From assembly GCA_000091205.1 (NCBI GenBank), contig AP006501.2: a DNA stretch of 64,000 nt; one strand, 5' to 3'. Shown here in pieces: positions 1,089 through 51,903 of the stretch. Made by a program: the position numbers and the translations under genes. The stretch comes from Cyanidioschyzon merolae. Lineage: Eukaryota. The notes beneath the pieces were generated by a model, which did not search any database, had not been told where the DNA came from, and saw only the letters and a program-made list of their open reading frames with translations. Within the stretch, counting starts at the first letter, position 1. Each line of letters opens with the position of its first letter.

Positions 1089-2309
<1,221 letters not shown>

Positions 2310-7527: not shown

Positions 7528-10382
7528 GACTTTCGGAACTATGATATCTCAAAAGGACGAGTATGTGCACGAAGTGCCTTCTGAACAGGTTTATGTACCT
7601 CCTAGGGTGACGTCGACTTGGTATGCACCGTCTACCAACGGCGATGTCGACGCCGACGTCTCCCGGCGACGCCGTCGCATGCTACCGGCGATCATCGGCG
7701 TGGGGCATATTGTTGCAAGACGTGAAGATCGGATGTTCAGCTAGAGCGCCTCTCCTGGAACATGCTCTAGAGGCAAAAGTAGCATTGCACTGCATCCGCC
7801 ACATACGACGTCGTCTATCGGGACGTGATTGGGTGTGGAGGAATACGCATGCGCTTTTCGACTGTAGTCTAAGGTTCGGCGTCTTGTACGAAGCATCCTG
7901 TCTTTCTGCTGACTGCGGGCAGTGAAAGGTAGTCAACGAAATAGAGCTGCAGATCAGGCAAGCACTGGTCAGTTGTTCGTTCGTTCAAGCCTCTATACCC
8001 GTGCCAGACGAAACAGGAACACACTGATCCTCGTTCTGTTACCGTACGTCGATATTTTCCAAACCTTTGTCTAGAGTTACAGTGTAGATATGTGAAGTGG
8101 ATCACCACTGACTTACAGATTCGTACGTATGTAAAGGATTCTCCGTCGCAATTTCGGTCTGGCTCCTTCGACTCCCTTCGGCCGGTACTTTTCCAGTCTA
8201 GGGATTCAAGATGATTCGCAACGCAATCGAACGAAGGCTGCTAGAGTAACAGATATCAGCATCCAACCCATGCGTACAGGCCTGTAAGCTTTTCTTTTGC
8301 AAACGTGTAGCGTGCAGGAATCACGCACCCTTCGTATGTTCGATCTGTCCGTTCCGAGGCGATTCTTGGGCGCGACAAGTTGCGTCGCTGTATTCACGAC
8401 GACGAGAACTCGGCTTTAAGCCCTGACGACCTGCTCGCATACTCACTCCGCAGGTGTACTGAACGGATAAGGTCGAATAATCGAGTATGGTCGAAAGACA
8501 TAATCTCCTCTTTTTTCGCCATCGAAGAAAAAGCATTCGACAGCATCAGCACGATACCTCTCAGGGAGTATGCTCCCAGATGCATGCGTCTCTTCTGTTT
8601 GCTTGGAAAAGTGTCTTGGGATAGGACTTCAGTCATCGCAGCAACAGCTGCCAGAGAAGGGTGCGTCACCGCTTGGGGCAAAGCGATTGCAGACGCAGCG
8701 GTGCAGTCGACTTGCTCCCCAGTCGGGATTTTCCTTCCGGTACCTGTTTTATCGAATGGAATGACGCATTCCAAACAAGCCCCAACTGGAAGGTGCGGAG
8801 TGCGTACGCGTATGCAACGGACAGTGTTCTCGACTAGGGGATCGCCCAGGAGAAGCCCCTGATCGTAAGGCACAGCAACGATGACGAAAACGGATGCAAA
8901 CATCGCGGGGAGCGTATTTCTACAGATTAGCGGCATCTTCGGAGCTGCGAAGCTAGCCTCCATGCGCCAGAGAGCGGCCTTTGTAAGAGACGATGTTGCA
9001 GGCACGTGAGAACGCCTCAGGGCAGCCAAGCGTTGGCGCCGCTGCGCGGGCTTCACCGAGGCTCTCCACTACGGAGGTGCAAGCGGCGAGCGAAGCGCAG
9101 CTCGCAACTCGCGCCTGTCCGTGGTATGCGTGGACATTTACCGGAAGGCGCGAGCTCGGGACATTAGCGTTGCCATCAAATCCTTCGGCGCTCACACCCG
9201 AGCTGGATGGACCGGTGAAACTGGCGCACCTCAGACCGGAAATAAGAGAGAAAAAAGGGGTAGGCGCGGAAAAATCCCACAAATGCTTGTATTGTTAACA
9301 GTTGGATGATTTTCAAACTTTGTACTGCATGCTCGAGTCAGGTTTGCGGACCCGTTCCGTTTGACTCTAAGATGCGCGCGGACTCGGCGGCGGACGCGAA
9401 ATGGTATACATCTTGAGAGCTTGAACAGAAACAATTAGATTCTTAACTTCCTGAGCGTCAAAATTTCCATTCGGGGCGGAATGATACCTCCCGCAGGAAC
9501 GGCTGCTCGAACCTTCCGCTTTTTCGATTGCGGGTTCCCGGTCCCGCACTAGCGTTTCCCGTACTATCTTTTGACTAAGGAAACGCTGCTTGTGGTTCTG
9601 GTGCATGCTCCGCGATGGCTTACTGGGGTTCGCTTTTGGCCCACTGGTTGATGAATTCCCGAACCGAAATGTATTCTATCTAACACATGCTATACGTTAG
9701 AATTGCTGTAGCTGTCCCTAAATGCCTTCTTGCCATGCAATGATGATCAAATTCCTGCGGTAGTCTGGTAAAATCTGCACATGGCCAGTTCGTAAGAACA
9801 TGGTCTTTTGGTCTTCTCACTTGATCAAGACAGCAAAGTCACGTAGGCTTGTGAAAAGCAATCATACGTAAGCGCCTTGATCCATGAATAGGTGACGAAA
9901 ATCTCTCGTTTACAATGAAATGTCGAAAAATCCGGAAGAGATGATGATGTTGTGACGCACAGCTCTGCTATAATTTTGAGAAGCCTCATCTTATGATCAG
10001 CCGATTAACGGTTACACGCTGTTTTGCCGTCCCCTGGACTACGTGCGACTGCCTTGCGCTTATTCGGATTCTTGTTAGTTCAGTGTCATTTATTCTTGGC
10101 GATGGAGGCTAGCGTGGGGTCCAAAGTACCTCCGAAAGAACACTCTGGCTTGACGTGCCTATTACGCGCTCTTCTGAAGCTTGAGTACACCAGCGCTAAC
10201 TTTTCCCTTGTATGCAATCCAGCACGATCGTTGCTGCACAGGAAAGGATCGAATTCGACGACGCGCAGTTCTCATTAGCAATTCGAAGGACTGTGCGGTT
10301 GGGATTTGTCCTGCGATCCGCATATCTATTTCAGGGGCATCTCGCCTGATGCAACACCAAAAGAGCAGCACCTGCTGCTGTG

Positions 10383-13043: not shown

Positions 13044-14065
13044 AGCGAAGCTGTACGGTCTAACTTGCGAACAAACCGCTCATTCCTTTTCTGGAACAAT
13101 CTCGTGGTGGAGGTCAAAAATTGCGGGGCTCTGCGAGGCGCACTGGCCCCATGCCATATCCTATCTGGGGGGTATTGCAGCGCTCGGCGGATGCACGCTG
13201 ATCTCGAGTGTCAAGCACGGTGCTGAGTTTGTGATGATGCAGGTATTTAGTTTTTGAGCGAGACTCATATTCATCGATACGTACTGTGTGTAATTTCACC
13301 GCGAATGGCGTGTTTCTTGTCGACAACTTCTGCATCAAAGCAAGTCATTGAGCTCGAAACTGGTAGGACTTGTGAGCTGTACGAGCGCCGTAAACATCGA
13401 ACACCTTACTCTGGATTCAGCAGGACACTCCGGTTACGTGAAGCACCTGCTGGAGAGAAGGGTTCAGGGTCTAGTCCGGAAGAGCACGTGGATGCTTTCG
13501 GACGCGATCCAAAGAAGGAGGCAGAGGCCTGGAAGGAGACGGCGCGCGAGCTCCTAGAAACAGATACTGTGCAGGAAGCTATCCACAAGCACATCGAGCG
13601 GGAACATTCGGGAGCGCAAGACGCTCCTGTGGATGTAACGGAAAAGCCGCAGCAGAGCAACTAGTTTTAGAAGGACAACTAGGGGTTAGAAATAGATTTG
13701 GAATTTAGCAGTTAAGAGTTCCGAGCGCCTACGTGGATGCACATAGCTCTCGTTATTCCGCCCGGGACGTATGCTCGCCAGAGCCGTGTCGATGGGAAAA
13801 GGAACACGGAACTGCAAGCTCTGCTCCTGTCTTTGCATGTTTGGAAACTATAGATGTGCAGCCTCGGCACAGAAAGTGCGGCGCTCTTGGCTCACGGTTT
13901 CATACGACGTGTAAGAATTCTCAATCATATTTCTGGAGTGGCACCTTCGACGCTATGAAGCAGGAATTCGTTACATCAATGCCTGCAAGATGATTTTCGA
14001 CACCTTCGAACAAGGGTCCGTAATATAACCAATACCATTATCTAGTCAATTCGCACAAGCCTCAA

Positions 14066-15940
14066 TTGCTCTCCGTTCTTCACGTGCAGTATTCTCAAAT
14101 CACGCGTTCTTCATGTTTTAGTCTTTCTTCTTCAAGGTACTTCGGGGGTTCTGCAATGTGCCCCGATGGATTGGTGAGGAACAACATGAGATGTCGACCT
14201 TTGACGACTTGTTCACAAGGTCATGCCGAAAGTCAGCTGAACCTTCCACGCCAAGTAATAAATTCTGTACGAAAGACATGTCCTTCTCTATTTGCAAATT
14301 ACGAAGAAACCGTATTTTACAACAGCACAATGGTTCCCAGAGAATATGCTCCCAGCGGCTTTCGTCTCTTGTGCTTTAATGGAAACGGGTCTTGGACCCG
14401 GGCCTCTCTCGAAAAGGCATTTGGGCCATCGTCACTGCCATCACCAACGATCGGCAGCATGAACAGGCGAAAGAATTTTTCGACAAGAAGACATCACGCA
14501 GGGGAAAGAATGAAGCTTATGTGATCGGTTCGGCTATTCAAGAGTACCGTGCGGTCTTGGGGCTAGCGAATCTCGCAGAAAAGTCATCAGATATGAAAAA
14601 AAGGTGATGAAATGCGCTGTCCCCTCATCCTGCGCTATTTCTTGTTCTTTGACCGAGAACTCGAAGACAAGGCCGGAAAGGAGCTGGGTGTAGGAAAAAA
14701 AGAAGAGTCGGAGAGACAGAAGGCTGCCCTAATGGGGAAGCGCTTCAAGGTCGTTCCGTTATGCAACATCAAGTCATACTTTGTGACAATCAACTCCAGA
14801 GTCTATTTCGGCATCATGAGGGATATCTATGAGGAGTTCGGCGTAAACAGGGAGGAGTTCAGCGGCGAAAATCGGGACACGTACCGGAAGAGTATCTTCT
14901 ATTTAAAAAGTGTCAAAACGAGCAAGCAAAAGAAATTCACATGGATGGTCGAAAGCGATGAAGTATCCATGTGTGTACACTTTCGGCGCTTGAAGGCGAA
15001 TCGTCCTGTTCCGTCCTCGGCTTCGCCCCTGAGGAAGCATGCAGAAAAGAAAGAGGCGGATCCTGCTACGCAGAAAGTGCAGGATAACGACTTTGTCGTT
15101 GGCGCGGACCCAGGGGACACGAATATAATAGCCATCGCAGTATCGAAGCGTATGGTAGATGTGACTGACGGCAACTTACGTCATAAAGACATGCGTCTCT
15201 TAAAGTTCTCGAGAACGAGATATCACCGAGAATCGGGAATAATGAGTGCGAGGGAAAAAATTTAGGAAGAGAATTCAGGAGTGAAAGAGCGCCTGGAAGC
15301 TATGAGCGAGGTGACTAGCCGAAAAGCGGACTTTCGAGCTTTTCTGAAATTCATGGAAGTTCGCGTTGCTCTTTGGGAGGCGCTGTGGAAAGAGTATACA
15401 AAGCCACGATGGGCTCGTTTGTGAATGAGCTTGTACTGTGTGAAGCAGCGGGCATTCGCCAACTTTTTCAATGAGTTGAGTGCCTTGAAAGAGGACGAGA
15501 GTCAAAGGCACGTAGTAGCATTCGGAGCAGGGTGCTGGGCATCGAAAAAATGGTGTACACCAGCTCCAACGACGAGAACGTACAAGGAGCGTGCACGGCG
15601 TTTTGCCACAATACCAATAGATGAGTTCCAATCGTCCAGTATTCACCATGAGTTGGGATGTACACTTCAGACGGTCGAGATGGATTAGTGTCAGCGGCGC
15701 GGTGACGATATAAAACAGTACGGAGCGCTGACGGAAGAGCAAATGGAAAGGACGGCGAAAGTTCGAGGATTGCTTACGTTAGTGAGTACAACCACCGGGA
15801 GGAAACGTGTGAAGTTTGTGAACAGGGAATTTAACGCCGCCATCAATATAAGGAGATGTGCGGTGATGGAAATAAGACCTCCAGAGTTGACAAGAGTGAA
15901 TTTTTGGGAGAACCTCTCAAATTATACGAGAAGAAATTGA
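14066..15940 (+). pseudogene. TnpB/Fanzor-like RuvC-fold nuclease gene (OrfB-type, IS200/605/607-like), copy A. One continuous reading frame interrupted by five in-frame stop codons.
   Basis: All ORF pieces (14066-14524, 14612-15265, 15425-15688, 15743-15940) lie in the same frame. They are separated only by stops at about 14522 (TGA), 14594 (TGA), 15263 (TAG), 15422 (TGA) and 15689 (TAG). The segments between the stops translate to sensible protein. It has a RuvC-I-like motif FVVGADPGDTNIIAIAV (about 15092-15140), a pre-zinc-finger block RRFATIPIDEFQSSSIHHELGC, and a RuvC-III-like motif KFVNREFNAAINIRR (about 15809-15856). Length (about 620 aa) fits TnpB/Fanzor. Confidence 0.55.
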
Positions 15941-16091
15941 AGCCAGTAGTAAGTGGCCAGTCTAAAAAGGCTGGGAAGCGTCTGCACATCGGCTGGAGAC
16001 GTCTAGCGTAGAGCGCGAGGCGCGCAACTACTGCACCGCTGGTGGCAACGTCTGACTTTTGAGGCGTTCGTTATTGCCAGCGTTGGCTGTG

Positions 16092-20960: not shown

Positions 20961-22466
20961 TCAATAAATGTATTCACGCGCAGACGATTCCCAGCCTTTT
21001 TCGACCGGCAGACTGCTGTCGGCCGGTCGAAAAATGTACACTTCGGGTCTGCGAGGCTTCCACACGAAGTTAGATCGCCTCAGCTCTGCGGCCCTCGTCT
21101 CCAGCACCGCAAATCGTCTGATATTAATAGCAGTGCTGAAGTCTCGGTTCACAAACTCCATGCGTTTGTTGCCGCTGGTTGAACTCACTAGTCTAAGGAT
21201 TCCTCGAACTCGAGCGCTCAGTGCCATTTGGTGCTCTGTCAACTCTGCGTGATTTTCTATCGCCGAGCCGCTCCACCGGCTCCTCTCCATCTCGTTCTTC
21301 TGAAGTATACGCACAGTTCATCCAAAGGGTTTTTTTCCTGAAACGAACGTACTTCCTCCCGTCCTTAAGTCAGGAGTTTCCCGGAGGATCGAAAGACTTG
21401 GAAAGTAAAGACAAAATGTGTCCCGATGTGTTACCGTGTGCTGAAAGCTTCAGCGATTCGCCCACTAGAACGATCACTACGTTTCACGATAGAAAACACT
21501 CCTTCGATGAGCTTTAACGACCGAGCGCATGCAGAGATAGAAAGCAGCTCTTCCCCGATTGCATTGGTAAAAGCTCAAACGCAAGAAGAATGGTGAAATA
21601 CCACGTTTTCCAATAGAATGACGTCGCTGGACGTCAGGAGAAAGTCTTCAATGATTCGCCAAAGTGGTCGGTGCTGTTGTATGAGCCTTTTCGATGAGCG
21701 AAACTGAGGCCGCAAAATGAATCTACTGCAGTTAGAACAGATAATGATGTCCTCGTTCTCATCGAGCTCGATCGTACATACAATGCGATTCCTCTCCGCA
21801 AATACTCATACACGCTTCGAGCGTATCGTTTGAAGTAAGTCATATTGACTGAAGAAACAAACCGACGTCCCCGTGCTTCATACCGATCGCGACGTGTCAG
21901 GACTTGTGTTCGAGCGATTCGGCGGAAGATGGCCATGCATGCATTTGGACTTTTTTTGCGACTGGATCTCAGTATTTTGATGACCACATATACAGTCTGG
22001 TGTGAAACAGGAACACCAGTAGTAAATCGTATCGACGCCTTTTGCTTTCCCTAGAGTGATCAACGGATCGTCTTCTAGCGTTGAGAGCAATCATGCTTTA
22101 AGAATATCGATTTTGGCACGAAATGCTTTCAATCTTTTCTTTCAGTGTTCCACCACCATCTGTGTTCTCCGCTACGAATGAGCTGAAGGTAAATGCAGTC
22201 CTCGTTGCAATTTTCAGTAAATGATATATCTTGTAAGCAATTCGTCTGTGATCTATGCGGTACATTGATCTGTAATATCCATCTCCATCTAGACAACACA
22301 GCGGAGCCGAAACAGAATTGAGTTGAAAGCCGCTCGCGTACGGCACTGAGCGCCGCGCACGCAATTTCGGGATTCCTTGCGCGTTGCAGACCGCACTCTG
22401 CAGTTGAACGCGTTGAGGCCAGTGGACGCATTCATAGTGTCGAGTGCGTGGACGTATTGTTTGCAT
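20961..22466 (-). pseudogene. TnpB/Fanzor-like RuvC nuclease gene, copy B, degenerate (frameshifts, catalytic-site substitutions)
   Basis: RuvC-III-like MEFVNRDFSTAINIRR sits at about 21122-21160 (-). A homolog of the copy A pre-zinc-finger block (YEARGRRFVSSVNMTYFKRY versus YKERARRFATIPIDEFQSS) is in ORF 21634-21987. A possible RuvC-I remnant FVAENTDGGGT is in ORF 22098-22466. The pieces lie in different frames. Confidence 0.45.
20997..21034. other. Perfect 13-bp-stem inverted repeat (hairpin) with 12-nt loop inside the 3' end of Fanzor-like copy B
   Basis: Read directly from the sequence: tttttcgaccggc (20997-21009), loop agactgctgtcg, then gccggtcgaaaaa (21022-21034). The second arm is the exact reverse complement of the first. 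Confidence 0.9.
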
Positions 22467-26571: not shown

Positions 26572-29500
26572 GCGCCGGCGCCTGCAGTGCTTGGCTTTCT
26601 CGAGTAGCTGCTATGTGCTCCGGGCAGAGGTGGCGAATAGAGCAGGAACCAAGCTCGCCAAAAAACGGAAGCGAGCTCCTGAGTTATTTCCTGGTTTTTT
26701 ACGAACACTATGGAGGTATTCCAATTCTTTGTTCAGGTTTCGGATCGTGGCCAGCACTGACGGCGGCAGCAGTAAGCCCGTGCGCTCAGCATAGCAATAA
26801 GCGGGCTCAAGGTCGTCATCACGACTAGATGCTCCCTAATCAGAATAATGACTTGCTGAGCTGATAGCCTTCACTGCATTCACCCTCAATATTGGATGCT
26901 GACTACCTCATGCACATCGTCGCCTCTTTGATCGATGGGAAAGCGGCGCTATCATACTGCTGTCCCATGGATTTCCGACGAGAAACTCTCGAAAGCGGTC
27001 CGGTTTCGTGAAAAGATAGAATGGTGCATCTTTTTGACGGAAATATGATGCTTCCAACACTTGCAAGGCCAGACGTTGCGACATTGTTTCAGACGTAATC
27101 CACACGGGCCGAGCAGCATCTGCAGAAAGCTGGATTCGCGCAACCGACCAGAGAGACATCTTCTGTACTTCTGTCCCTTCTCGGCTGAATCTGGGAACCC
27201 ACTCACACACTATATAAAGTCGCTTAATTGGGATCAGGCTTTCTTAGATTCTCTTGATTGTTTTAATAAAACGACTTGCAGCTCGCACTAATTGTGGAGT
27301 CGTTTGCGTGGCTCTCCGTTGCAGAGCGGAGTTACGCGACAGCCCAAAACATTCATGATGTTCTACATACAGCTGTGAGTTATAGAACGCGTCTCCAAAT
27401 AAACCTTGTTCTTTTGCTCGTTTCTCTCACAGATATCGAAAACCAGGAATGCATCGTTGGACTGAAGAATGGACGCGGAATTTTTTTTGCTTTAAGTGCT
27501 GGCTGGCAGTTGAAAGCCTCAGATTTTCGAGTACTTCGTGCTTCGCTCAGCTAGTGGATGAGCGAACCTTCTTGTTGTCAATCTCTTGAACATTGTCTAC
27601 TCTTGAAAAAGATCAAATCAAAACCTATCCAGATGACTGGCTCCTCAGCAATCCATTCCACCCCAGACTCTCGCTCAAAAAAATAAATGCGAGAGGAGCC
27701 ACAGGATCCGAGTTTTCCCGTTCTTTGACGTGAACCATGATAAAGCGACACGCTTGGAGAACGAAAATGGGACCCTTCTATTCGAGACAGGCGCGCGTGA
27801 AACAACACACCATCGACTTCGTCCTGAAACGCGAATGCGTATTTCGAGAGGCAAGGGCGGTGATCTCGCTCAACGAGACTCCCTTCGGAAGCGATGATGG
27901 TCCTTTGCGTGGGCGCCCAGAGGGCGGCAAATTACTGTTCATGAAGGAAACGCTGGCGGGAATGATCGCAGCATCAGCGCTAGCGGGGATTCAGTCGAAT
28001 GTTCGCCGCCAAATCGCCAAACGGAAAGAATCGTCCAACACCGCATCATAGGTTGAACCACTCTTCGTGGCTTCTTTTCCGCGAACTCATCCATCCTGCT
28101 CTCGCACAACATAGCTTTCCACCGCCCATATGGTGTCGTCTAACACGCTGCTTGCATTCATGTTGGGCTGCTCCTCGTGCCGGTCTCTACTTCGTGGTAT
28201 GATCGAGTCGAACGCGCATTCTATGGCATCAAACGCTCTGTTGACGCTCACGAATCTCTAGACATGTCACTCGAACCGTCGCACCGTTCTTAAACAAGTC
28301 GTGCTCTCCCTTCATCTGCCATGAACTGCTGTGTTGCTTTAGTGCTCGTGCGCGGTATGGAGGTGAAATACGCTCCACGGTCCGTGAATATTCTCGCAAC
28401 CGAGCGGATCACCAGAGGATTCCTGAGGAGGAGGAGTAGATACATATACACCTACGCAGCAGAAGGCGGACTCGGTCCCACCGTCCATCAAGCGCGTCTG
28501 AGCTCCTAGGGGACAAACGTCCATGATATACAGCGCCGAAATCCAAGCCATCTCGCCGAGCAGATGTGAAGAAGGGAAACGCCACTGGGCAGAGAAAAGG
28601 AGGGTTCCCTTGAATAGAGGACTACGAGGGAGAGGACGGAAAATCTGCCGGAGCTGAAAGACCAGTCTGAAAGCGTTGTCAGGTCTTTTTTACCAAAACA
28701 TATTAACCTGGAGCATTCCCAGAAATTGAAGAGAATGACTTCAGTGGGAAGAGCGCAGCTTCACACACAAGGAAGGCTCACCTGATATTTCTCGCATTGA
28801 CGCACGTCGTCAAGCAGCATATCGTGGGAGTTCCGGACGCAGTGCTGCCAGCTGTCCACATTCTTATCGAAAGTTTTCATCATATCTTCCTGAGAAAATG
28901 CAGATGATGCTCTTGTCAGAAGGTTCACTGCGCTCCGATCGTTGGATCCGAGTTTTGGACACCCGCTATCCAGCACGCCTACAAGCATCCCCGCGCCAGT
29001 CAACGATCGGAACATCTAAAGCACAGGTACCAGAAGCCATCGAAGCAATCTCATGAAACGAAACCATTCGTGGGTTAATGTCGAGCGCTTCATGAGGCGG
29101 ACACTGTTGGTATTGTTGCAGTTGTACGCTTATTCCACTGGTCCGGAATTGTAGGAACTGATGCAAAGGGTTCCCGAGGTGTCGATAGATGAGAATGACG
29201 AGCTCGTGACGAAAGAGCTCGTGACGGTCGCGAGTTCTGAAGGGATATCGCAGTGAGAGAGAGAGAGTCGCAACGATGTTCCAAGCTAGCATCAAATGGC
29301 TAAGGTTTGTGGCACTTGTGCCCATCGCACTTGCTGGTGTCTCTCAGATGCTGCATGCGCATGCCCATGAAAGCTTTTGGTGCAGAAGCAGCCTCAAGAA
29401 GATCCGGAAAGTATACAATACGACCGATAGAGCATCAGGCGTCTGCAAAAGTGGTATATCAACAAGTATCAACTATGCTCGCGAACACTGGAGCTTCTTG

Positions 29501-31566: not shown

Positions 31567-32003
31567 TCCGTGCCGTATACAGCGTTCTGCAATAGGCGGC
31601 GGCGGCGGAACGAAGCTGTCCAGCAAGAAATAAGTTCTTCAAACCTAAGAAACAGATCCCTTGACAGAAGAAGCTCACTGGATTGGACACCCGTTTCGTC
31701 AGTGAGCACCCATGGACCGATGTTATACATTATTCCACTGTTTGCAATCGTGGAGGCGGTTGGCTCAGCACCCGTCGCCGCTGCGGCAAACCGCTCGGTC
31801 CGATGGGAAAGACTTGCCTGGTCCTGATGGGACACACGTGCGACTGGAGAGAAGAAGTGGACTTTTCTATGATTACCGGTAGCGTTTGCGTATCTCTGGC
31901 GGATCTTGTGCGATGAATCGATCTTCCAACAGAAAAAATGCGATTGGCAACCCCAATGCCATAAAGTGGAAAGGATCTACGTACGTTAATCGGACGCGCA
32001 CGA

Positions 32004-33291
32004 CAAAGTTTGGGTGTCCTCCTGCAATGACCTGCACCAGCCATTGCGGTTATTTCTGCGACTGCCTCATTGCCCGCCCTCCTGTCTCTATAGCTCCGTT
32101 GCCAGCGGTCGAGGAATCCTGATCGCAGCGCCAAAGCTCCTATTTCGAGGCTTCCGACTGTTGTCGATGCATTTTATAGGCGGACGGAGGTGGCGTTCTG
32201 CGCTTCGCTTGCCAATTTCATTTTCTTCGTGTATAGCCTCTGTGTGCGGTTCGCGGCGGTGACTCATGAGGCCGGCATAGTGTCCCCAGCTGTCCGCGAC
32301 ACTTGCACCTTCGAGGACTTGCCTGCAGCGCGCGAACGCTTGTTTCATCGCTCGGCACATGCCCGATACTAGTTCAAGAGGTTCCCATAAATGCACGCTG
32401 TCGTTTCCGCACACAGTTTCTACTCTACGATCACCGGCCTCGTCGGGGCGATCCCGTCAGCGGCTGCGTCGTTCGATGAACACGCAGACGCACATTGTCT
32501 CGCACGATGAAGAGATTTGTGGAACGCGACGTAGTTCACGTTGTAACAGGTGCTCAGATGAAAACCTGGGCAGGAGAACAACTCGAAAACCTGCGACCTG
32601 TCTCTGCTCCCTTCGTGCACATTGATGACGCACTGCCCACCGAGCGCAATCGCTGTCACGACTGACGTCAGAGTCCACAGCGCTGTTCCATGCAAGACGG
32701 TGGCGACGGACGCCTCCGAGAGCACATCCCGTGAGAGGAATCACGGTGGCGTCGACTGCCTTCTCATCGACGGCGACGAAGAGAGGGCCATTTGCTTTTC
32801 GAAGGGAATCGATGATTTGACGTGACAATTGCAGTGAACTTTCGGCATGAACTTTTTGTGAACAGGTCGTCAACGGCCGACGTCGAGTGATTCTCCACGC
32901 CAATGCCGCAGCGCGCATCGCTGCACCACAAGGTGGTATGGTACAGTCGATCGAAACCTCTAACCATGCGCGATGTGAATATGCTTCACATGAGAAAATG
33001 CGAAGCGCCGATGTTGATGCGTACAAGTTGGATGATGATATCGGGTAAGGCACGAATCCGTGCTCGAGGGCGTCGCGAATGATGTCAATGACGATGACGT
33101 GACGAATACGAGCGGCAAAGCATCGAAAGAGCTACTCCGAGGACACGATCCAGAATTCTGAAACTCTATATGAGTACGTAGTGCTTTATTGCTTCACTGT
33201 GAACGCCGAGGCTGTAAAGCGAAAGCGTCCAGACGGAATGAGAGAGAAAGGCGGGAACAGGGCAAACATTTCAGTATTCCATTTTACTCTG
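32004..33291. repeat. Copy 1 of a 1.29-kb dispersed direct repeat (about 99% identical to 50363-51650)
   Basis: Direct comparison of the two stretches shows about 12 mismatches over about 1290 bp. It contains the ORF 32457-33053 (-), which has the motif RPLTTCSQKVHAESSLQLSRQIIDSLRK shared with ORF 14066-14524. Confidence 0.9.
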
Positions 33292-35924
33292 CACGCGTTC
33301 GGCGTTTCTATCACGTCCGTTGTGACTAACGAAGTACAGAAACGACTAGCATTATACCATTTACGTACTGCTCGAGCGCATCGACATTTCTCGCGCGTGC
33401 GCAGCGACGCAGTTGAGCAGGCCAACAAATAACCGCCACGGGTTTAAGCAACGCTTACCGCAAACGCGTCGAGCGAGAAAGACGCACCATCGAACGGAAC
33501 CATGGCAAATGAACTACAAGTACGTCAGCGCAGAGCGCCACAAGATACGCAAGTCGTCGAAGCAAAACCAAGAGCTGCCGCTGTTTCGACTCAGAGGACG
33601 CCTGGTGCGAAACGACACGGCCTGAAGCTCGGGCCGACCGCAGTGCTCGCAATTAGCCTCGGTTTTGTCGGGACAGTCATAACGCTACATATCATCGGAA
33701 AACTTGCCGGAATCTAAGACCCAATCACTAGGTCTTGGTGCTTGCACAGCGTATGACCAACCAGAAGCCTGGCAGATCTGATCAACGTTCGGAACCGGAG
33801 CTGTACGCGTTCCTCGCGCATCCGGAAGACTGCTGGTGGGGAGCAACTGTTCGCTCCCCTACATCCATGTCGCTTTCGGCTTGTGTGGTACGACGCTTGA
33901 TCGGTACGCCTGCCGAATCGTAAGGCGCGTCGCGCTCAGGGCAGCACATGTTGCCGATGCGTACGAAACACACGAGTGCTTCCGAGCGATTTTCTGTTTC
34001 CTGAGCAGTGATGCGGATGACGAGCGGCTCCACCCCGGTAAAAGGATTTTGCGAGACTTACCTGTACGAGTGAATCTCTCAGGTTGGTACGTGATTTCGG
34101 CGAGTCCCATCGGCTGCCAGCACCATGTGAACACTTTCCCAGCGAACACCGAGTTCCGACTGAAATCAAATGGTTTCTCTGGGCTAACTCGGGCGTCTAC
34201 TCTAAAGTTTTGGTCTCTTCACACTATCGTCAACATCAACCTTTCCCGGATTTTTATGTGACTGTTTCCATTTTGGTCTATACTTCCTCTGGCTTTATAC
34301 ATGCTGGTCCTATCCTTTACTTCAACTCCGTTGTCTACATTCAAAGCACGTTGGTGGAAGCATTCAAGCCCCATTTTCGTCGGTGTCAGTTGTTCCTCAC
34401 GCATTTCATGCAGAGGCGGAAGTTCCCATACACATGTCGCTTGCCATATTTATCTTCTCTGTAGATAGACTCGATGCATCCTTTGCAACCGTCAAAGCTG
34501 ACTATGGGCAGGTGCGCTCATATGTCCAAAACACAATTTTCTCCAAGGGCCGCTCTGACGCGTAAGAACGCATGCCTCACAGCTCGATACACGTACATGA
34601 CGCGGACAGAGCGCTCCACTCAATACCCTGATCCGTTTACGCATCCGGTGCTGTACGCTACTAACTTGAGATTCCGTTGGTACATTCCCTCAGCGAGTAC
34701 ACAGTCTGCTGCATACGCAATCGAACGCTTTTCTATTCGATTGTGTATTTATGGAACGCGATTATGTTCATAATGAAACAAATACCGGAAGGAAGATTCA
34801 GACTGGAGAACAAGTCGAGAATTCTCAGTCCGTCTGCGCTCCATTTATGCAAAGCTATGGCGTAATCTCCACTTGTAGCGGTCGCTGCATTGGCTCAAGC
34901 CCGAGTCCAAGACTCATTCCCGTAGACAGAGAAGGCTTGGGAGCCTCTGGGAATACTTCTTGCGAGACATATCATGTTGCTGTAGAGTGCCATTTGGTCG
35001 ATAACAGCAAATAGGGGAGGATTTGCGTTTCTCATGAAACCGATCATTTGACATGTCAAAATCTCTAAACTTTCGGAATGGCTTGCGAGCAAGTCGTTTC
35101 AGGACGACGCCAGGTTTCATTCTTCATCTATCCAGCAATGCGAATTACTGCACAAGTGAACGGTCGTGAAAAGGAAAGATCGAGATTTTGAAGAATGTAT
35201 GATTTGAGCGAGGGATACGGAAGAGAAGGGGAACACTAGAGGCCTGTGGATACGAGTTGCAGAAACATGAATCTTCATTTACGAATCCACTTTCGGGGGC
35301 GACGGGAATCATCTTAATTTCGCTAACGCAACGACTTCCAGCGGCAAGGAGTCGAAGAAGCCACTCTGAAAATATAACTCATAATCCTAAACTATGCATC
35401 AATTCTTGATGCCCTTATTGGCGTGGTTCGTACTTCGAAGCTGTGTATCCATATGAATTTAGAAAAAAAAATCGATACGCAGGAAGACAGCGGTTATTCA
35501 GTGCTCCGATTTAAGCCGGCACTAACCGAGAATACGCGTTTCTACCCGGGATATTCACGACTCACGAGTGGATATTTTGGCTCCGGGGAATCATAGAGTC
35601 TGATGAATCGAAGGGCGCTTGGCAAATGTAATCGCATCTCGATATCGCAACTCCTGGTCAAGAGATGCATCCTAAATGGCCCGAAGAATCGCACTTGGGA
35701 GGCGCATGCACGCGAGAACCTCTTCCCTGACGAACGCCTACAGCAATGAGCGATCGTGACAGTTGAGCGTCAATGCCGGAAATTCCAGATACGAACGATT
35801 CCTGTCAGTAAACTCATAACCACGTGCACAGAAGAGAAATGCGAACGGTAAGGATTTTACTAATTTATGCTGCACGCGGGGAAGACAACAAATGACCCTG
35901 AGTGCACTGGGCACCTGGAGATGC

Positions 35925-37754
35925 TCATGTTTCCGAGCGGCTTCGTCTCTTTTCGAGACGTTTTCGTAACAGCAGCACATTGGCCTCTTTGGATCTGGAG
36001 AAGCGCGGATTTGTGGGATCAATAGCGAACTCGTGATCCTCGTAGATTGCCCGAAAGCGCTCATCATCAGGGTTGAAGGGAAGCATTTCCAAGTTCGTGG
36101 CAACATCAGTCGATGCCTTTGAGCGCTTCTCTTTCCGGCGACGTCTGCGCTGCCCCGCATTAGCATGTGCGGAATCGTACTCCATGGAAAGCGCTGCTTT
36201 CGGCGGTTCCGTAGAAGCGTCTCGTTGCTTTGATCGTCCCGGATGCTGAGACGAGAGACCGGAAGCTGCGCTAGAAAGCAGGTCGCTCCTCGTTGCTGGT
36301 TGCGTTTCTGTATCAGAAGCCGCGTCCTCACGGGAGGAATACGCTACGAGCAGTGGATCTCGGCTAACGTTACGATTCATAAGGTGCTCGTTGCTTTCCG
36401 TTCCAGACGCACCTTCGTTCGAGTTGCGCTCGTTCTGCTCGGATACTTCAGTTGTTGTACCTGGTACTGCTCTCCGCCAGGCTCGCCGCGACCGCTTGTT
36501 CTCGCGCGCTAGCAATCGTGTTTCTTCATGCTGCAATTCTCGCTTCTCCCTTTCAGTAATGATTCGCTGGCCAAGCCTCTCCAATGACGGGATATAGGTC
36601 ACCTCCATATCCACGTCCGAGTTTCCATCGGATACGTCCCTGTCCGGTTTCGAGCTTTCGAATTCCGCCACCGAGCCGGCAGATTCCCCCAGCTCGTCGC
36701 TGCCTAGCAAACGTTTTCGATAGGCATCAATCCACGCTGCGTCGCGGTCATGATCGCCTTCGGAATCTGTCGAGCTCGCCAAGTATGCTTTGAAGTCTTC
36801 ATCTTTTAGTTCGTCCTCGGTGAATCGCCTTTTCTGCAGTTTCTTCAATCGCCGCTGATCATCTGCATCCCACGTGAGTTGTACGTTAGAATGTTGGAGT
36901 GCGCGAGTGGCGAAGGGCTGCGGCGCGTAGTCGAAAGGTACTGTATCCGCCGTATCGCGCGGTGATCTGCTTTCAAACTCATGCGACAGGTCTGGAATGA
37001 ATCGCAAATCTATGAAGTTAGAACTTCTTTCGAATTCGATGCCGTCAGCTGCGTCATAGAGCGCGCTGGCCGTCACCACCGAATCGCATTCAATCACAGC
37101 GAAAAAGTACCGCATGCGCAGCTTTTCATATCGTCGAATGAGCTCAATCTCTCGCTTCTGCTTTTCTTCCAGCTCGTGAGTAGTTTTAGGCATAAGATCG
37201 TCGTCAGAAGAGAGATTCTCAGCGTCGTAGTCAAACTGTGGTCCATACTTGGCTTCCTTCTCGGCCCTGCTCAAATACAAAGCCGTCGGATACACGCTGA
37301 CGCGGAGCACCTTACCACCAGCTGGCGCCAGGGAGCGCATGACTGCCAGTATATCCACAGCACTGATATGGTTCCAGTCCATGTTCACTAGAGCGAGCCT
37401 CCTTGTTGGTTCGCCCCGCGGAACGGCTTCCCCCGAGTCGTCCGACGCCGACGCCGACACGGCGAAGGCGTCAACACGTGCGTCTGCTCGCTCAAAGGAC
37501 ACTTCCTCACTACCTGTGGAGTCCCAAATGTCGACTTCAGTGTAAAGCACCCGCTCAGCGTCCTCGTCGCCAGGACGTTGTGAAGGGTGCCGTGGCGCCG
37601 CCGCCGGTGCACGAACTGGCCCCGCTGGCTCAACCTCCAAGGGTACTCGAAAGCGCGGATCCGCGTCCGGAACCGTTCCATAGTCCGTATGTTTTATCCT
37701 TCGAAATCTTCGGTCTGTTACGACTTTCGAAAAGCGAGGATCTAGGTTCCGCAT
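35925..37754 (-). CDS. ESF1: ESF1 homolog (18S rRNA biogenesis factor, NUC153-type)
   Basis: N-terminal DPRF...RRFRRIK repeats are present. The characteristic block LALVNMDWNHISAVDILAVMRSL...VLRVSVYP and an acidic/basic C-terminus are ESF1 features. Start is trimmed to the first ATG. Confidence 0.8.
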   Translation of the reverse strand: MRNLDPRFSKVVTDRRFRRIKHTDYGTVPDADPRFRVPLEVEPAGPVRAPAAAPRHPSQRPGDEDAERVLYTEVDIWDSTGSEEVSFERADARVDAFAVSASASDDSGEAVPRGEPTRRLALVNMDWNHISAVDILAVMRSLAPAGGKVLRVSVYPTALYLSRAEKEAKYGPQFDYDAENLSSDDDLMPKTTHELEEKQKREIELIRRYEKLRMRYFFAVIECDSVVTASALYDAADGIEFERSSNFIDLRFIPDLSHEFESRSPRDTADTVPFDYAPQPFATRALQHSNVQLTWDADDQRRLKKLQKRRFTEDELKDEDFKAYLASSTDSEGDHDRDAAWIDAYRKRLLGSDELGESAGSVAEFESSKPDRDVSDGNSDVDMEVTYIPSLERLGQRIITEREKRELQHEETRLLARENKRSRRAWRRAVPGTTTEVSEQNERNSNEGASGTESNEHLMNRNVSRDPLLVAYSSREDAASDTETQPATRSDLLSSAASGLSSQHPGRSKQRDASTEPPKAALSMEYDSAHANAGQRRRRRKEKRSKASTDVATNLEMLPFNPDDERFRAIYEDHEFAIDPTNPRFSRSKEANVLLLRKRLEKRRSRSET

Positions 37755-38869
37755 TGCACGAACGCTGACTTTGAGCAATGAATACCAGTGCAGGCAAGTG
37801 CTATGCTGAAGAAGCCTCGCTGATTGCGGCGCACGAATCCAGCAGCAGGTGCTTCGATGGTCAACGATTAATGCGTTGAACTGGAAAAATCAGTAGAGCT
37901 ATCATCACATAGGAACCGTATCCTATACTGGAAAATCCCCGAGAAGCGACCATCTCAGTGGAACTGTGAAGATCACCAAATGCTTCAGAGTAAGTCCATG
38001 CTGCGCTCCGAAAGACTTGTTCCGACTATGTGCAAGTGCAATCGAAATCTTGCACAAACGTTGAGGACACCCACACGCCGATGCCGCTTGATCTGAGCGC
38101 GTCAGCGATAGAGCTCTGTCATCCATCTATTGGGCAGGCTTGTTCTCCATGTTGCTGCTTGCTTGTGCTCCTAGAAAAGTTGACTCGGGAAGTACCCTGC
38201 GCAGAGATGCGACGATAGGCGGGGGCCCTGAATCACTTGTGTCACTCTGTCCGAATTGTTGTTTTATCCTGTCGTTGTATGCTTGCGCTCCTGCATGCAT
38301 AGATGCAAGGTTGTACTCTGGAAAGCTACACCAAAAAATTAGCTTGAATTTCGGAATATAGGTAGTGGTCATTGTCTACGTCAAACGCATCTTGCCCAAA
38401 TCAAAATGCGTCATCAACGAGAGGATCGGTCCGCGATGATTTGAGGGTACTCGTTCATGGGCAAAAAGGTGTGGTGTTCGATACCCACCAGCCACGAGCA
38501 CCTGGCGAGGGTGTCTCACCAGATGCGAAGTCGGCCATGATTGCTTGAATGATTTGCGTTCGTGGTAGCTCCACAGAGAAGCTGGAGCATCTTCATCGTG
38601 CGCTGCTGTATAGCGCTCATCGTCAGCCCCTTTCGTGACGGCTACCGATGCAGATGCGCGGCGTTATGAAGGTTGCTGCCCCGTGCTGCACAGAAACCGC
38701 TCCGTCCTGTTTTCGGCGGCAGCAGGTACCCTGTGGAACAAGAATCCTAAAGCGCGGAGAACTGAGGATAGCGAAGTATACGTGTATCGCTGACTCCTAC
38801 TAGCTTGCTGCGCGGCGTGACCTCTTCGATCCGTGGCTAGAATATCGACGCTGCGGAGCGTCCATGAGT

Positions 38870-39418
38870 CTACTCCGTCCATTTTCTCTCACGCTGCTCA
38901 GCCTGCTTTTGACGAATGCGCTCCCCAACGACGGTCTTGAGACGCGCCATGCCTTTGCGGAGTTTCCACAAATCACTCGAGCCTTTCCAAAGGAGCTGAT
39001 TTCGACGGCAAAAATCTCGTTCGCTCAGCAGGGCCAGCTTTTCTTTCATCATCACGAACCACAATCGATGCAGATCATCCGTGGACTTTAGTCGTAGCTC
39101 AGAAGCCTTCCACGCTCGTGCATTCGTGCTCGGTCGCATGCCTCGCGTACTTTGTGTCCATTCTTGCCCGAAAACACGTGCGGTAGCCAGTTCAGCTACC
39201 GCATCGTGGGATGCTTTGGATACTGCGGGTCCATCGGAAGCACTAGCGCTTGACTCTGCCGCGGGCGACTCAAGGTTGCCGCTTTTTTTCGAGAAATAGA
39301 AAACAGACCCGTATCGGTTCCAGGGACTCTTGGTAGCAAGTGACGTGCCGCTGCTGCATAGTCCCGGGAGGCGTGTAATGCTGCTGCGGCACGCACAAAG
39401 CATCAAAGAAAGCGTCAT
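38870..39418 (-). CDS. MRPL47: Mitochondrial ribosomal protein L47 (uL29m / MRP-L4 family) with presequence
   Basis: ARAWKASELRLKSTDDLHRLWFVMMKEKLALLSE matches the MRPL47 signature (GRAWKAEELR.KS.EDLHKLWYVLLKE.N.LLT). The N-terminus MTLSLMLCACRSSITRLPG is presequence-like. Start is set to the first ATG. Confidence 0.7.
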   Translation of the reverse strand: MTLSLMLCACRSSITRLPGLCSSGTSLATKSPWNRYGSVFYFSKKSGNLESPAAESSASASDGPAVSKASHDAVAELATARVFGQEWTQSTRGMRPSTNARAWKASELRLKSTDDLHRLWFVMMKEKLALLSERDFCRRNQLLWKGSSDLWKLRKGMARLKTVVGERIRQKQAEQRERKWTE

Positions 39419-47677: not shown

Positions 47678-49099
47678 TCATGTGAGCTTGTCATGTTCGG
47701 GCTCAGTAAGAGGGAAAGCCTCAACAAGAGAACCTCCTTGATGCCAGCGGGGAGGCAAGCAGCGCTTAGTGCTCGATGAACTTTGCGCCCAGAGCAAGCG
47801 CATAGGGTACACACACAGACGCCCAGTGCAACAAAAACATTCCACGACCGTGTAGGGGTAATGAATACCCATGGGCAGACGCCTCCGGGCGTTTGTCGGC
47901 CCCTCCCCTGCTCCTGGCTTCAGCTTCTCTTTGTGCACTTCGACCATGACACACTGCCCTGCAAATTTGAGTAGTGTAAGCTCCTCGAGTCTCGTCCTCA
48001 GCACCGCATATCTTATGATATTGATGGCGTTGTTGAAGTCTCGGTTCACAAAGTCCATGCGCTTGTCGCTTCTGGTGGAACTTTGCAATGCGGGGAGTCT
48101 TCGAAATCGCGACCTCTATGCCGTTCGCGGCTTTGTCAGCTCGCCGTGCTTTTGTATCCTCAAAACGATCCGTTGGCTTTTCTCTGTCACAACTTTCTGG
48201 AGTGTCCACCTCAGCCCAATCTTTATATTTTGAAAATGAATGCACTTTTTTATGCAATTTGATGAGTACCTTTCCGAAGGGAGAAGAACTTGCGGAAGAA
48301 AGACCACATATGCCCTGGTGCCACCGTGTGCTGAACGCTTCAGTGGTTCGCCCAGTGGAGTGATCATAGCGTTTCACGACAGAAAACATTCCTTCCATGG
48401 TGTTGAGCCACGAGGTGTGCGGAGGAATCAAAAGCAGCGCTACCCCGATAGAATCGGCAAATGGTCGAATGCAAGGCGATGGTGAAATGCCGCGTTGTCC
48501 GGTAGAAAGACGTCGCCGGACGTCAGAGAACAGTCTTCAACGGTTCGACAATGTGAATGCAGCTGTGCGAGCCTTCTCTAAGAGCGAAGCTGAGGCGACC
48601 AAATGAATCCGCTGCATCTAGAGGAGATGATGGTATCCTCGTTCTCTACGAGTTCCATCGTTTTTAGAACGGGTTCCCTTCACCCCGAATATTTATGCAC
48701 ACTCCGCCGGCATCAACTGAAGGAATTCCGGGCGACTGAAGAAATAAAGCCACGTCACTGTGTATTATACCCATCAAGACGTTCCAGGAACGCTTTAGTT
48801 GCGATTTCGGTGGAAGATGGCTGCGCACGGACGAGGACTCGTTTTTTCGACCATATCTTAGTGTTTCCAGGACCACTCGAACAATATGTTGGGCAACAGA
48901 GACACCTGTAGTTCCTACTATCGCTGCTTTTGCTTTCCTTATGATGATAAACAGGTCGTTTTCTACCATTGATCGCAGGCAGTCTTCGAGAATATCGGTT
49001 TTTAACGCGGATCGCGAAACCTCCTTTGTTTCCGTATTCCTCAATCATCTGCCTACTGTGGTAGACTGACCTGAATGAGGAATGCAGGCCTCCTTGCAA
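47678..49099 (-). pseudogene. TnpB/Fanzor-like RuvC nuclease gene, copy C, degenerate (frameshifts; RuvC-I Asp replaced)
   Basis: RuvC-III-like MDFVNRDFNNAINIIR sits at about 48005-48052 (-). The RuvC-I region VLVRAQPSSTEIATKA aligns with VVGADPGDTNIIAIA of copy A, with the catalytic D changed to Q. A block at about 48310-48650 is roughly three-quarters identical by eye to copy B 21418-21760. Confidence 0.4.
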
Positions 49100-50362
49100 T
49101 GTTCAGTAAACAACGTATATCCGTCAGGCAACTCATCAACGATCTATACAGTCCAATGCATGGTGATGTGGATCGCCTCTTATCCACTTCAAAAAAGCAT
49201 TCAACGGCACGCAGCCGAGGTGAAACAGAAATGAGTTCAAGGTACGCTTCGTACGCGCGCCCTGCCTTTACAGCGTCGAGGATCGAACGCTATATTTTAT
49301 TACTTTTTTGTCGTTTTCTGTGTGTGTTCGAGGCAACGCTTGCTGGAGTTGAACTGAACGCTCAGATATGGCCCTTGGTCGTTTTCCAAGCTCGTACACA
49401 ACGAGCGCCGGCACCTCTAGAGGTAGCGGCGGGGCTGGCTTACTACCGTTCTCTCAAGAGCCGTTGGTTGAACCGCGCGTCCTACAGCGGGCGATTCAGA
49501 ACCGAATAACACGAAGGCGAATTCGTTTGGTTGGAGATTCACTCGTGCTTGTGTGCTCTGTTGCTGTAGCCGCTTCAATACTTGGGAGGACTTACCAACT
49601 GTACTCAGAAAGTAGTAATAGGTCGGCAAAGTAGAAAGTCGACGCCTCGCCTAGATCAGCATTTGCTGCAAAACTTTCGTTCTTGATGCGCGGCAGGTTG
49701 TTGCTGCTTTCATCCTGCTGTGCCTAGGCAACTCAACGGCTAAAGTATGTTGAACTATACGCGTTTATGTTTTTGTTGCTCGCGAGCTGGTTTTGCGAAC
49801 AAACCTGGTTTTTTCAGAATAGTTGAAGGATCGTTTGGAAGTAACACTCGTTCGTATCCATTCGAAGCAGATTCCGGTGCAGGGTGCCCACATGAAACAA
49901 TTCGTTCGCTTCGCATATTCCTGCTTCAGATGGAGTTCTGCCACGCCTCGACACAGAGGCGCGTTTCGAGTTCGGCAGAACTGGTCTGCGTTGCGACAGT
50001 ACACCCTGGAGTCGCAACTGGCATCGGAGGCATCTCGTAGGCGGTTGTTTTTCTGCCCGCGAAGTGAACGCTTCTGCTCCAAAGTCTTGGGTACCCAGAT
50101 TTCGACTGGAGTGTGAGCACTTCTCAGCGAGAGCGACATTTGGCCCCTGGTTCTCCATGAACTCGAGTAATCGTAGCTGATAGACATGTAAGTGCGGCGC
50201 TGGCTGTCTGGCGAGCGGAAAGCTGATGTATAGAGCGCGAGCCGTCTCTGTCAGTTAGCACTGACTTGGCATCTCTGCGTTCAGCCGATTCTCTTCTTCA
50301 ACTTTCACGAATGTCAGACTTAAATAGAATGATTCCGCACAGGGCACTTCAGCGCTTACACT

Positions 50363-51650
50363 AAAGTTTGGGTGTCCTCCTGCAATGACCTGCACCAGCC
50401 ATTGCGGTTATTTCTGCGACTGCCTCATTGCCCTCCCTCCTGTCTCTATAGCTCCGTTGCCAGCGGTCGAGGAATCCTGATCGCAGCGCCAAAGCTCCTA
50501 TTTCGAGGCTTCCGACTGTTGTCGATGCATTTTATAGGCGGACGGAGGTGGCGTTCTGCGCTTCGCTTGCCAATTTCATTTTCTTCGTGTATAGCCTCTG
50601 TGCGCCGTTCGTGGCGGTGACTCATGAGGCCGGCATCGTGTCCACAGCTGTCCGCGACACTTGCACCTTCGAGGACTTGCCTGCAGCGCGCGAACGCTTG
50701 TTTCATCGCTCGGCACATGCCCGATACTAGTTCAAGAGGTTCCCATAAATGCACGCTGTCGTTTCCGCACACAGTTTCTACTCTACGATCACCGGCCTCG
50801 TCGGGGCGATCCCGTCAGCGGCTGCGTCGTTCGATGCACACGCAGACGCACATTGTCTCGCACGATGAAGAGATTTGTGGAACGCGACGTAGTTCACGTT
50901 GTAACAGGTGCTCAGATGAAAACCTGGGCAGGAGAACAACTCGAAAACCTGCGACCTGTCTCTGCTCCCTTCGTGCACATTGATGACGCACTGCCCACCG
51001 AGCGCAATCGCTGTCACGACTGACGTCAGAGTCCACAGCGCTGTTCCATGCAAGACGGTGGCGACGGACGCCTCCGAGAGCACATCCCGTGAGAGGAATC
51101 ACGGTGGCGTCGACTGCCTTCTCATCGACGGCGACGAAGAGAGGGCCATTTGCTTTTCGAAGCGAATCGATGATTTGACGTGACAATTGCAGTGAACTTT
51201 CGGCATGAACTTTTTGTGAACAGGTCGTCAACGGCGGACGTCGAGTGATTCTCCACGCCAATGCCGCAGCGCGCATCGCTGCACCACAAGGTGGTATGGT
51301 ACAGTCGATCGAAACCTCTAACCATGCGCGATGTGAATATGCTTTACATGAGAAAATGCGAAGCGCCGATGTTGATGCGTACAAGTTGGATGATGATATC
51401 GGGTAAGGCACGAATCCGTGCTCGAGGGCGTCGCGAATGATGTCAATGACGATGACGTGACGAATACGAGCGGCAAAGCATCGAAAGAGCTACTCCGAGG
51501 ACACGATCCAGAATTCTGAAACTCTATATGAGTATGTAGTGCTTTATTGCTTCACTGTGAACGCCGAGGCTGTAAAGCGAAAGCGTCCGGACGGAATGAG
51601 AGAGAAAGGCGGGAACAGGGCAAACATTTCAGTATTCCATTTTACTCTGC
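50363..51650. repeat. Copy 2 of the 1.29-kb direct repeat (see 32004-33291); lies immediately upstream of Fanzor-like copy C on the same strand
   Basis: Near-identical to 32004-33291, with the same internal ORF (50815-51411 -). Confidence 0.9.
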
Positions 51651-51903
51651 CTCATTTTTGGGCCAGCGGGTTCACGCCCTGTCTCTAGACAGCGCCAAAA
51701 CCGACGTAATGAACGGATGCAATCGCCATGGAAGGAGCGTTGCCGAGCCTCCTAGTTTCACGATACTGCTCCCGGGCAGCGAGGACGCGCGAAAGGCGCA
51801 CTCGAGACGCAGCACGCACGTCAACGGTGCTCAGGTAGACGGGGGTGCAACCACCACGAACATAGCTTCATTAAACCCCACAAGTCCCCATTCCTTATCA
51901 CAA

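Follow-up and report, generated by a model that had tools for sequence, protein, structure and literature searches.

Two nearly identical copies of a sequence of about 1.3 kb are found on the same strand of Cyanidioschyzon merolae DNA, with host genes between them. This arrangement raises the questions of what kind of sequence is repeated, whether it belongs to the Fanzor elements of this alga, and how the two copies came to be so alike. The window analysed here is a stretch of 64,000 nucleotides (contig AP006501.2, assembly GCA_000091205.1) and is part of chromosome 19 of C. merolae 10D. Six of its long open reading frames (ORFs) exactly matched C. merolae 10D proteins, including ClpB (BAM82758), CMS133C and CMS135C, and CMS141C, CMS143C, TRM1, uL29m and NFX1 were also matched among its genes. 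The 10D genome is finished and intron-poor (PMC1955436).

When the window was compared with itself by blastn, the two copies, R1 and R2 (R being their common sequence), gave a single gap-free alignment of 1,288 nt with 12 mismatches. We judge that such a match cannot arise by chance. The sequence-only reading of this DNA had reported about 99% identity and about a dozen differences, in agreement with this count; it had placed the second copy exactly and the first (32004-33291) one base too far to the left. The coordinates of all features are provided in Table 1. The distance from start to start is 18,358 bp, with 17,070 bp between the copies, and this interval holds the host genes that had been named before (ESF1, uL29m/MRPL47 and the 711-aa CMS141C) plus Sec61beta. 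R1 is located between the minus-strand gene TRM1, whose ATG is at 31566, and the plus-strand gene Sec61beta (33502-33717). R2 is 254 bp away from the stop of the minus-strand gene CMS143C (51904-52299); no gene is annotated at either site. According to the list of mismatches, the identity breaks off sharply at each end and the immediate flanks look unrelated.

Table 1. Positions of the repeat copies, their margins, the related relics and the neighbouring Fanzor copies (window coordinates unless a contig is named).
Feature	Position	Strand	Description
R4	7984..9381	+	full-length old relic; relaxed blastn, nhmmer profile
RA	13778..14406	+	5' 630 bp only, cut where Fanzor copy A begins
Copy A	14396..16062	+	5'-truncated CMe-1A; consensus nt 1486-3163, protein aa 193-730
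R1 old 3' tail	31948..32004	-	family-level similarity only
R1 locus	33300-31962	-	extent by nhmmer family profile
R1	32005..33292	-	1,288-bp tract, 99.07% identical to R2; self-blastn
198-aa ORF	32457..33053 (twin 50815-51411)	-	judged no gene
R1-side 12 bases	33293..33304	-	ACGCGTTCGGCG on plus strand; matches family 5' end
R3	35531-34143	-	full-length old relic, ~58% identical to R1/R2, ~0.85 kb from R1
Copy C	47875..49158	-	69% identical to copy B (20976-22267)
R2 old 3' tail	50302..50362	-	in-register match to R3 and R4 tails
R2 locus	51664-50302	-	extent by nhmmer family profile
R2	50363..51650	-	twin tract of R1; self-blastn
R2-side 12 bases (10D)	51651..51662	-	CTCATTTTTGGG on plus strand; not family-like
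R5	contig L010, 15205-16570		sixth relic, just beyond the window's right end

That the pair might have arisen through misassembly, or might represent the two long terminal repeats (LTRs) of a retrotransposon, is suggested by nothing more than the presence of two direct repeats, and we regard the chance of either as negligible. Independent environmental assemblies (JGI, ENA and Logan) supplied more than 30 contigs with 99.3-99.8% identity to the window. These contigs either cross a copy or stop 30-360 bp inside the repeat, and they do so at all four junctions. Contigs that break just inside a repeat are the usual outcome of short-read assembly at true repeats. Entering R1 from the left, L004-L008 end at 32131-32217, and L018, L033 and L034 enter likewise; from the right, L021-L030 start at 32933-33263. 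On the R2 side, L010-L013 start at 51448-51462 while L031 and L035 end at 50555-50557. R2 is crossed together with both flanks by L014-L016 and L019, and L018 covers nearly all of R1. The repeat is real, since four of the four repeat/flank junctions were reproduced by independent assemblies, and the finished state of the reference genome (PMC1955436) also speaks against an artefact. A 30-mer taken from the left end of R was present, as an exact match, in six JGI metagenome contigs with only two types of left flank. In these populations R therefore occurs in two copies and does not behave as an active multi-copy element. The same 30-mer scan of JGI metagenomes yielded no third young copy, and a scan of viral contigs for R was empty. 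With respect to the LTR reading, R1 and R2 resemble such a pair in being two direct repeats of about 1.3 kb, but they enclose host genes without gag or pol, R ends in AAAGTT...CTCTGC and not in TG...CA, and no target duplication is common to both copies (flanks CGCACGAC vs CTCATTTT). No LTR elements have been reported in the C. merolae genome (PMC1955436).

R proved to be a member of an old dispersed family with a unit of about 1.36-1.40 kb, as recognised by tblastx, relaxed blastn and an nhmmer profile. Relaxed blastn and nhmmer recovered exactly five relics of this family in the window and a sixth just beyond its right end, in a survey that covered ~70 kb of the 16.5-Mb genome. The old relics are about 58-62% identical in pairs, both to each other and to R, and they occupy several sites whose flanks are unrelated beyond the unit. 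Neither consistent inverted terminal repeats nor target-site duplications were found in the family, and a search for a transposition protein gave no Pfam, PDB or protein homologue. From these sequence features the family appears to be an unclassified, non-coding, dispersed repeat. Relics of R lie near Fanzor relics at three places (RA with copy A, R2 with copy C, and R5 with a relic designated E), with variable spacing and orientation; no such relic lies near R3 or R4.

Each copy of R contains a minus-strand ORF of 198 aa, as had been noted earlier. This ORF looks spurious from its sequence. It begins with GTG, and in a eukaryote the first ATG, at codon 46, would leave 153 aa. Among 5.8 billion proteins it matched only its own cluster, it had no PDB match, and six-frame translation of R2 yielded no Pfam domain. 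Its codon-usage score was -0.012, compared with 0.067 +/- 0.045 for real genes and -0.015 +/- 0.035 for ORFs in non-coding frames. Substitutions between the relics showed no codon periodicity, which is weak evidence given that dead copies decay neutrally anyway. At the RNA level, R matched no Rfam family, no tRNAs were found, and folding of 200-nt windows on both strands gave no excess of structure (MFE z-scores all |z|<1.4).

These data bear on whether R could be a functional non-coding element or gene present in two copies and kept identical by selection. The location of one copy between the divergent genes TRM1 and Sec61beta, and of the other immediately 3' of CMS143C, would suit such a role, and interspersed repeats of C. 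merolae are reportedly transcribed (PMC1955436). Against it stand the absence of an Rfam family, of excess RNA structure, of any protein signal and of an annotated gene, the free decay of the four other family members, and the differences between the ORF twins, of which three change the amino acid and one is silent. Selection for function is thus highly improbable as the cause of the identity.

The relationship with Fanzor required a defined reference. CMe-1A is one Fanzor1 family of C. merolae, with a consensus of 3,169 bp and a 734-aa protein (Bao & Jurka 2013, PMC3627910). It has about 150 copies, ~80% identical to the consensus, without inverted repeats and without recognised target duplications, and the 635-bp non-autonomous element TE-N2_CMe corresponds to its first 635 bp (PMC3627910). 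Nozaki et al. (2007) described 253 copies of a 3.2-kb interspersed repeat carrying a WSV486-like ORF (PMC1955436), which we read as the same element. The CMe-1A consensus was taken from supplementary file 2 of PMC3627910. Searches with the CMe-1 protein against PDB and Pfam gave nothing, or a faint match to PF07282 (E 0.51), so that its assignment to Fanzor rests on that publication.

Relaxed blastn placed the CMe-1A consensus at 2482-2960, 14396-16062, 20976-21321, 41665-41822, 47875-48218 and 53807-53867 of the window. Copy A is 83.7% identical to the consensus over 1,680 nt (blastn), with 74% protein identity (tblastn). Copies B and C resemble Fanzor over their last ~350 bp only (aa about 616-726), which in copy C are the last 344 bp (47875-48218; aa 616-726). 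A TE-N2-like copy, matching CMe-1A nt 133-636, was observed at 2482-2960, and a very divergent Fanzor relic at 41456-43063.

Neither R1 nor R2 was matched by the consensus in that search of the window, nor by the 734-aa protein in tblastn at E up to 10. In the reverse direction, R2, R3, R4, RA and a reconstructed family consensus gave only noise against CMe-1A (E>0.2), and over all these comparisons every hit had E>0.1 and was non-collinear. The 198-aa ORF scored E 19 against the CMe-1 protein, and the TnpB-like motif D...[TS][TS]..C4 zinc finger...RD is absent from R. A Fanzor identity of R was consequently rejected, blastn, tblastn, blastx and tblastx with CMe-1A all being negative.

The sequence-only reading had connected R with Fanzor through a peptide similarity between the 198-aa ORF and the ORF at 14066-14524, regarded as the N-terminal region of copy A. 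The similarity itself is significant under a statistical test (BLASTP, 46% over 65 aa, E 4e-13), and the DNA mirrors it, with 68% identity over 148 nt and 58% over ~640-660 nt (E 1e-34 to 4e-40). Nevertheless, the ORF at 14066-14524 is not a Fanzor N-terminal region: it is upstream of the start of the CMe-1A match at 14396 and is read in frame 2, as opposed to frame 1 for Fanzor at this point (ORF 14392-14607). RA contains most of this ORF, and the peptide likeness appears to reflect DNA homology to 13778-14406, upstream of the Fanzor start.

It had further been proposed that the repeats are 5' Fanzor fragments and that R2, abutting copy C, forms with it a single element of about 3.9 kb; put more weakly, R would be the 5' module of an older, undescribed family bearing Fanzor. 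Some of the geography is in keeping with this. RA is directly upstream of copy A on the same strand, R2 is upstream of copy C on the same strand, a Fanzor C-terminal relic is located 350 bp from R5, and interchangeable 5' regions are known from MCi-2 and from CMe-1A with TE-N2_CMe (PMC3627910). The details point the other way, and we consider even this weaker version very unlikely. CMe-1A DNA and protein match neither copy of R, and the other relics and the family consensus are equally devoid of similarity to them. Copy A and RA, which adjoins it, differ in age, since the former has 84% identity to the consensus and the latter 58-62% identity to other R relics, and the ORF at 14066-14524 is out of the Fanzor frame. 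R2 does not abut copy C, because the segment common to copies B and C ends at 49158 and the relic around R2 ends near 50302, with about 1.14-1.2 kb of unrelated sequence between them. Similarity between B and C stops at 22267/49158 and no R adjoins copy B; the Fanzor relic at R5 is on the opposite strand, and R3 and R4 have no Fanzor sequence downstream.

How the two copies became identical was addressed through their margins, where identity falls abruptly from 99% to the level of the family. The boundary at 32005/50363 is the minus-strand 3' end of the tract, just after the conserved ...CAAACTTT, and every full-length copy ends in ...(C/A)AAACTTT or ...GTACTTT at this same position. Family similarity continues for about 55 nt past the 3' end of the tract in all full-length copies. 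These tails were compared over 60 nt, ungapped and anchored at the tract boundary, with p values obtained against 2,000 random segments of the window. Identities were 34/60 for R2-R3, 31/60 for R2-R4, 29/60 for R3-R4 and 29/60 for R1-R4 (p<0.0005 in each case), and 23/60 for R1-R2 (p about 0.013). Over 40 nt, the R1 tail matched that of R4 at 23/40 positions (p about 0.0005 or less) and those of R2 and R3 at 18/40 (p about 0.005). R5 carries the same tail, which the R1 tail resembles. Profiles built from three tails recovered the fourth in place for R2, R3 and R4 (E 0.0085 to 0.14); left out in turn, the R2 tail was found at E 0.055, and the R1 tail at the right position with a window-wide E of 5.3. 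It must be noted that the evidence for the old tail of R1 is statistical and modest, with in-register p values of 0.0005 to 0.02. No convincing free-standing tail motif was present in the window, the best extra match (E 0.18) being inside copy B.

On the 5' side, the resemblance to the family reaches only some 10-12 bp beyond the tract. The 12 bases next to R1 agree with RA at 8/12 positions by eye, and their first 10 positions agree with R4 and RA at 6/10. The 12 bases next to R2 in 10D are probably a remnant of the R2 relic's old 5' end. This form was present in eight environmental contigs, while contig L032 carries the R1-type form: R is followed by the R1-type 12 bases and then by the R2 flank from position +13, in register.

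Because each tail keeps family similarity while those of R1 and R2 share only 23/60 positions, an old copy seems to have been present at each locus before the two became alike. The survival of such old sequence on both sides disfavours a simple recent insertion or segmental duplication and fits an overwriting of two relics. The earlier alternatives had been a recent duplication or homogenisation by gene conversion; on the evidence of the flanking tails the second is the better supported and the first loses ground. We lean, by a little, towards R1 and R2 being two old, decayed relics homogenised by non-allelic (ectopic) gene conversion. Each locus would have held an old and diverged relic of the family, one of which would have served as template when the other was repaired by recombination. 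In this way 1,288 bp in the centre (in one environmental variant, 1,300 bp) would have been overwritten, giving the 99% identity, while the old 3' tails and, in 10D, the outermost 5' 12 bp of R2 would have escaped and kept their ancient divergence. Such conversion would probably have occurred more than once. The 12-bp extension in L032 is most simply explained by a conversion tract that reached 12 bp further, and we infer that the direction was from R1 to R2, at least for this 12-bp variant.

Other data are relevant to this reading. At the R2 locus, environmental contigs vary at sites by which R1 and R2 differ in 10D, and among these, sites 1173 and 1227 are 62-116 bp from unique flank; both these shared variants and the L032 tract end come from short-read metagenome assemblies of mixed populations, whose paths may mix the two copies. 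Of the 12 differences between R1 and R2, five fall into a cluster of 42 bp (P about 0.003 by simulation). C. merolae is documented to carry out both homologous recombination and gene conversion (PMC3764038). Conversion also has points against it. The relic R3, 0.85 kb from R1 and in the same orientation, has not been homogenised. Recombination between sequences that are only ~55% identical is normally very inefficient. Conversion would consequently need either an exchange that began when the pair was much younger and more similar, with only the edges left out of it, or a rare repair event guided by microhomology.

The main rival is a recent transposition, in which R would be a 1.3-kb non-autonomous element inserted beside a loosely conserved target motif of ~55 bp, either at both sites or at one from the other. 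A target motif would explain why similar sequence follows every copy, the tract ends are sharp, and all full-length copies end in one of the two terminal motifs at the same position. The 5' end of the repeat in L032 coincides with the end of family similarity, about 10-12 bp outside the 10D tract, and CMe-1A and TE-N2_CMe are likewise without inverted repeats or visible target duplications (PMC3627910). However, across the metagenome collection the exact 30-mer occurs in only two copies, and the window holds no convincing tail motif away from the R copies (best E 0.18). The tails are as diverged as the bodies of the elements, as expected of element parts. In addition, the in-register difference of 12 bp for 12 bp at the R2 junction requires an extra ad hoc event, and no empty site was seen among about 30 environmental contigs. 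In attention to these points, recent insertion seems unlikely.

The pair had also been proposed as a substrate for non-allelic recombination. This is plausible. Two single contigs carry deletion-type and reciprocal joins, with chimeric assembly as a possible source. L032 joins the left flank of R1 to the right flank of R2, which is a junction of deletion type, and L036 joins the left flank of R2 to the right flank of R1, as in a circle or a tandem duplication. The two contigs come from different metagenomes, and such joins are also what a confused assembler would produce. As the organism is haploid, a deletion of 18.4 kb would mean the loss of ESF1, uL29m and Sec61beta. A bolder proposal is that R1 and R2 are still exchanging in wild C. 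merolae, through conversion with varying tract ends and through reciprocal crossovers yielding the 18.4-kb deletion and its circle or tandem-duplication counterpart, with breaks perhaps made by the alga's own Fanzor RNA-guided nucleases cutting old relics; we hold this to be quite unlikely.

Concerted evolution of dispersed paralogous repeats by ectopic conversion is well known from yeast Ty/delta elements and human segmental duplications. R1 and R2 resemble these cases in having a near-identical tract with abrupt ends inside an older, diverged homology, variants apparently shared between loci, patchy differences, and the plausible role of the pair as a substrate for deletion or duplication. 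They differ in that the homology left outside the tract is very short, with about 55 nt at one end and 0-12 nt at the opposite one, and very diverged (about 40-55%). Among the elements of the same genome, R is like CMe-1A in being a dispersed and decayed repeat without inverted termini or recognisable target duplications; unlike it, R has no TnpB/RuvC motif and no ORF, and shows no detectable DNA or protein similarity to it. TE-N2_CMe is, like R, a short, non-coding, dispersed element of unassigned class, but R matches neither TE-N2_CMe nor CMe-1A.

R1 and R2 are thus a real, well-replicated and fairly ordinary two-copy repeat, not derived from Fanzor on any test run. The main value of this result concerns annotation, as the likeness of an ORF to sequence beside a Fanzor copy does not make it a Fanzor. 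A further outcome is that the "simplest" eukaryotic genome contains an old family of repeats so decayed that ordinary repeat searches would miss it. If the reading of gene conversion is true, the pair would be a small natural case of concerted evolution and a possible rearrangement hotspot on either side of essential genes, in a model alga that is haploid and proficient in recombination. Many hot-spring metagenomes already include C. merolae, and the pair could be traced in them.

The local density of the R family, an old non-coding dispersed repeat, is unexpectedly high for a genome described as repeat-poor. Six relics of this family were found in ~70 kb, the sixth being located, together with a relic of a Fanzor C-terminal part, on an environmental contig (L010) that matches the window. 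The list of genes given by the sequence-only reading for the interval between R1 and R2, the two nearly identical copies of this family, was incomplete, as it left out the gene for Sec61beta. This gene is flanked by R1 and the old full-length relic R3.

Features in the window and on contig L010 (window positions unless L010 is indicated)
Feature	Position	Strand	Remarks
Sixth R-family relic, full-length	L010 15205-16570		Outside window; with next feature, ~66.6-68.6 kb in window numbering
Fanzor C-terminal relic	L010 16920-17135	Opposite to sixth R relic	350 bp beyond that relic
CMe-1A 5' module copy	2482-2960	-	74% to consensus nt 133-636
Tandem 207-nt (69-aa) units, n=10	4681-6834		Head-to-tail, within 1,490-aa ORF 3055-7527 (-)
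Copy B	20976-22267	-	~1.2-1.3 kb in common with copy C, 69% identity
Copy C	47875-49158	-	See copy B
Fragment related to divergent Fanzor-like relic	28788-29115	+	
Sec61beta, 71 aa	33502-33717	+	Pfam PF03911, E 2e-7
Very divergent Fanzor-like relic	41456-43063	-	27-43% amino-acid identity to CMe-1, aa 75-689
Tandem 96-nt units, n=3	59949-60236		

Two tandem arrays were also present. Most of the 207-nt units were 96-99% identical to each other, and the ORF containing them is a highly repetitive protein-coding gene. At the 96-nt units, the registers were shifted where environmental contigs align, which suggests that their copy number differs among populations.

Several environmental contigs break at window 42900-43023, within the divergent Fanzor-like relic. 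One 22-kb contig (L021; JGI 3300052694) follows window 33166-43023, departs from the window order at this last position and continues with an inverted stretch from past the window's right end, a region normally >20 kb away. Its departure from the window order represents a structural variant or else a chimera assembled through repeats.

With respect to the Fanzor-related sequences, the stretch matching the 5' module of CMe-1A, the published Fanzor1 element of C. merolae, is a non-autonomous element similar to TE-N2_CMe. The resemblance of copies B and C to Fanzor was limited to their last ~350 bp, and their upstream 0.95 kb matched neither CMe-1A nor R; they may represent another unclassified element with a borrowed Fanzor 3' end. 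Finally, the divergent relic and its related fragment point to a Fanzor lineage that would be older than the published CMe-1A.
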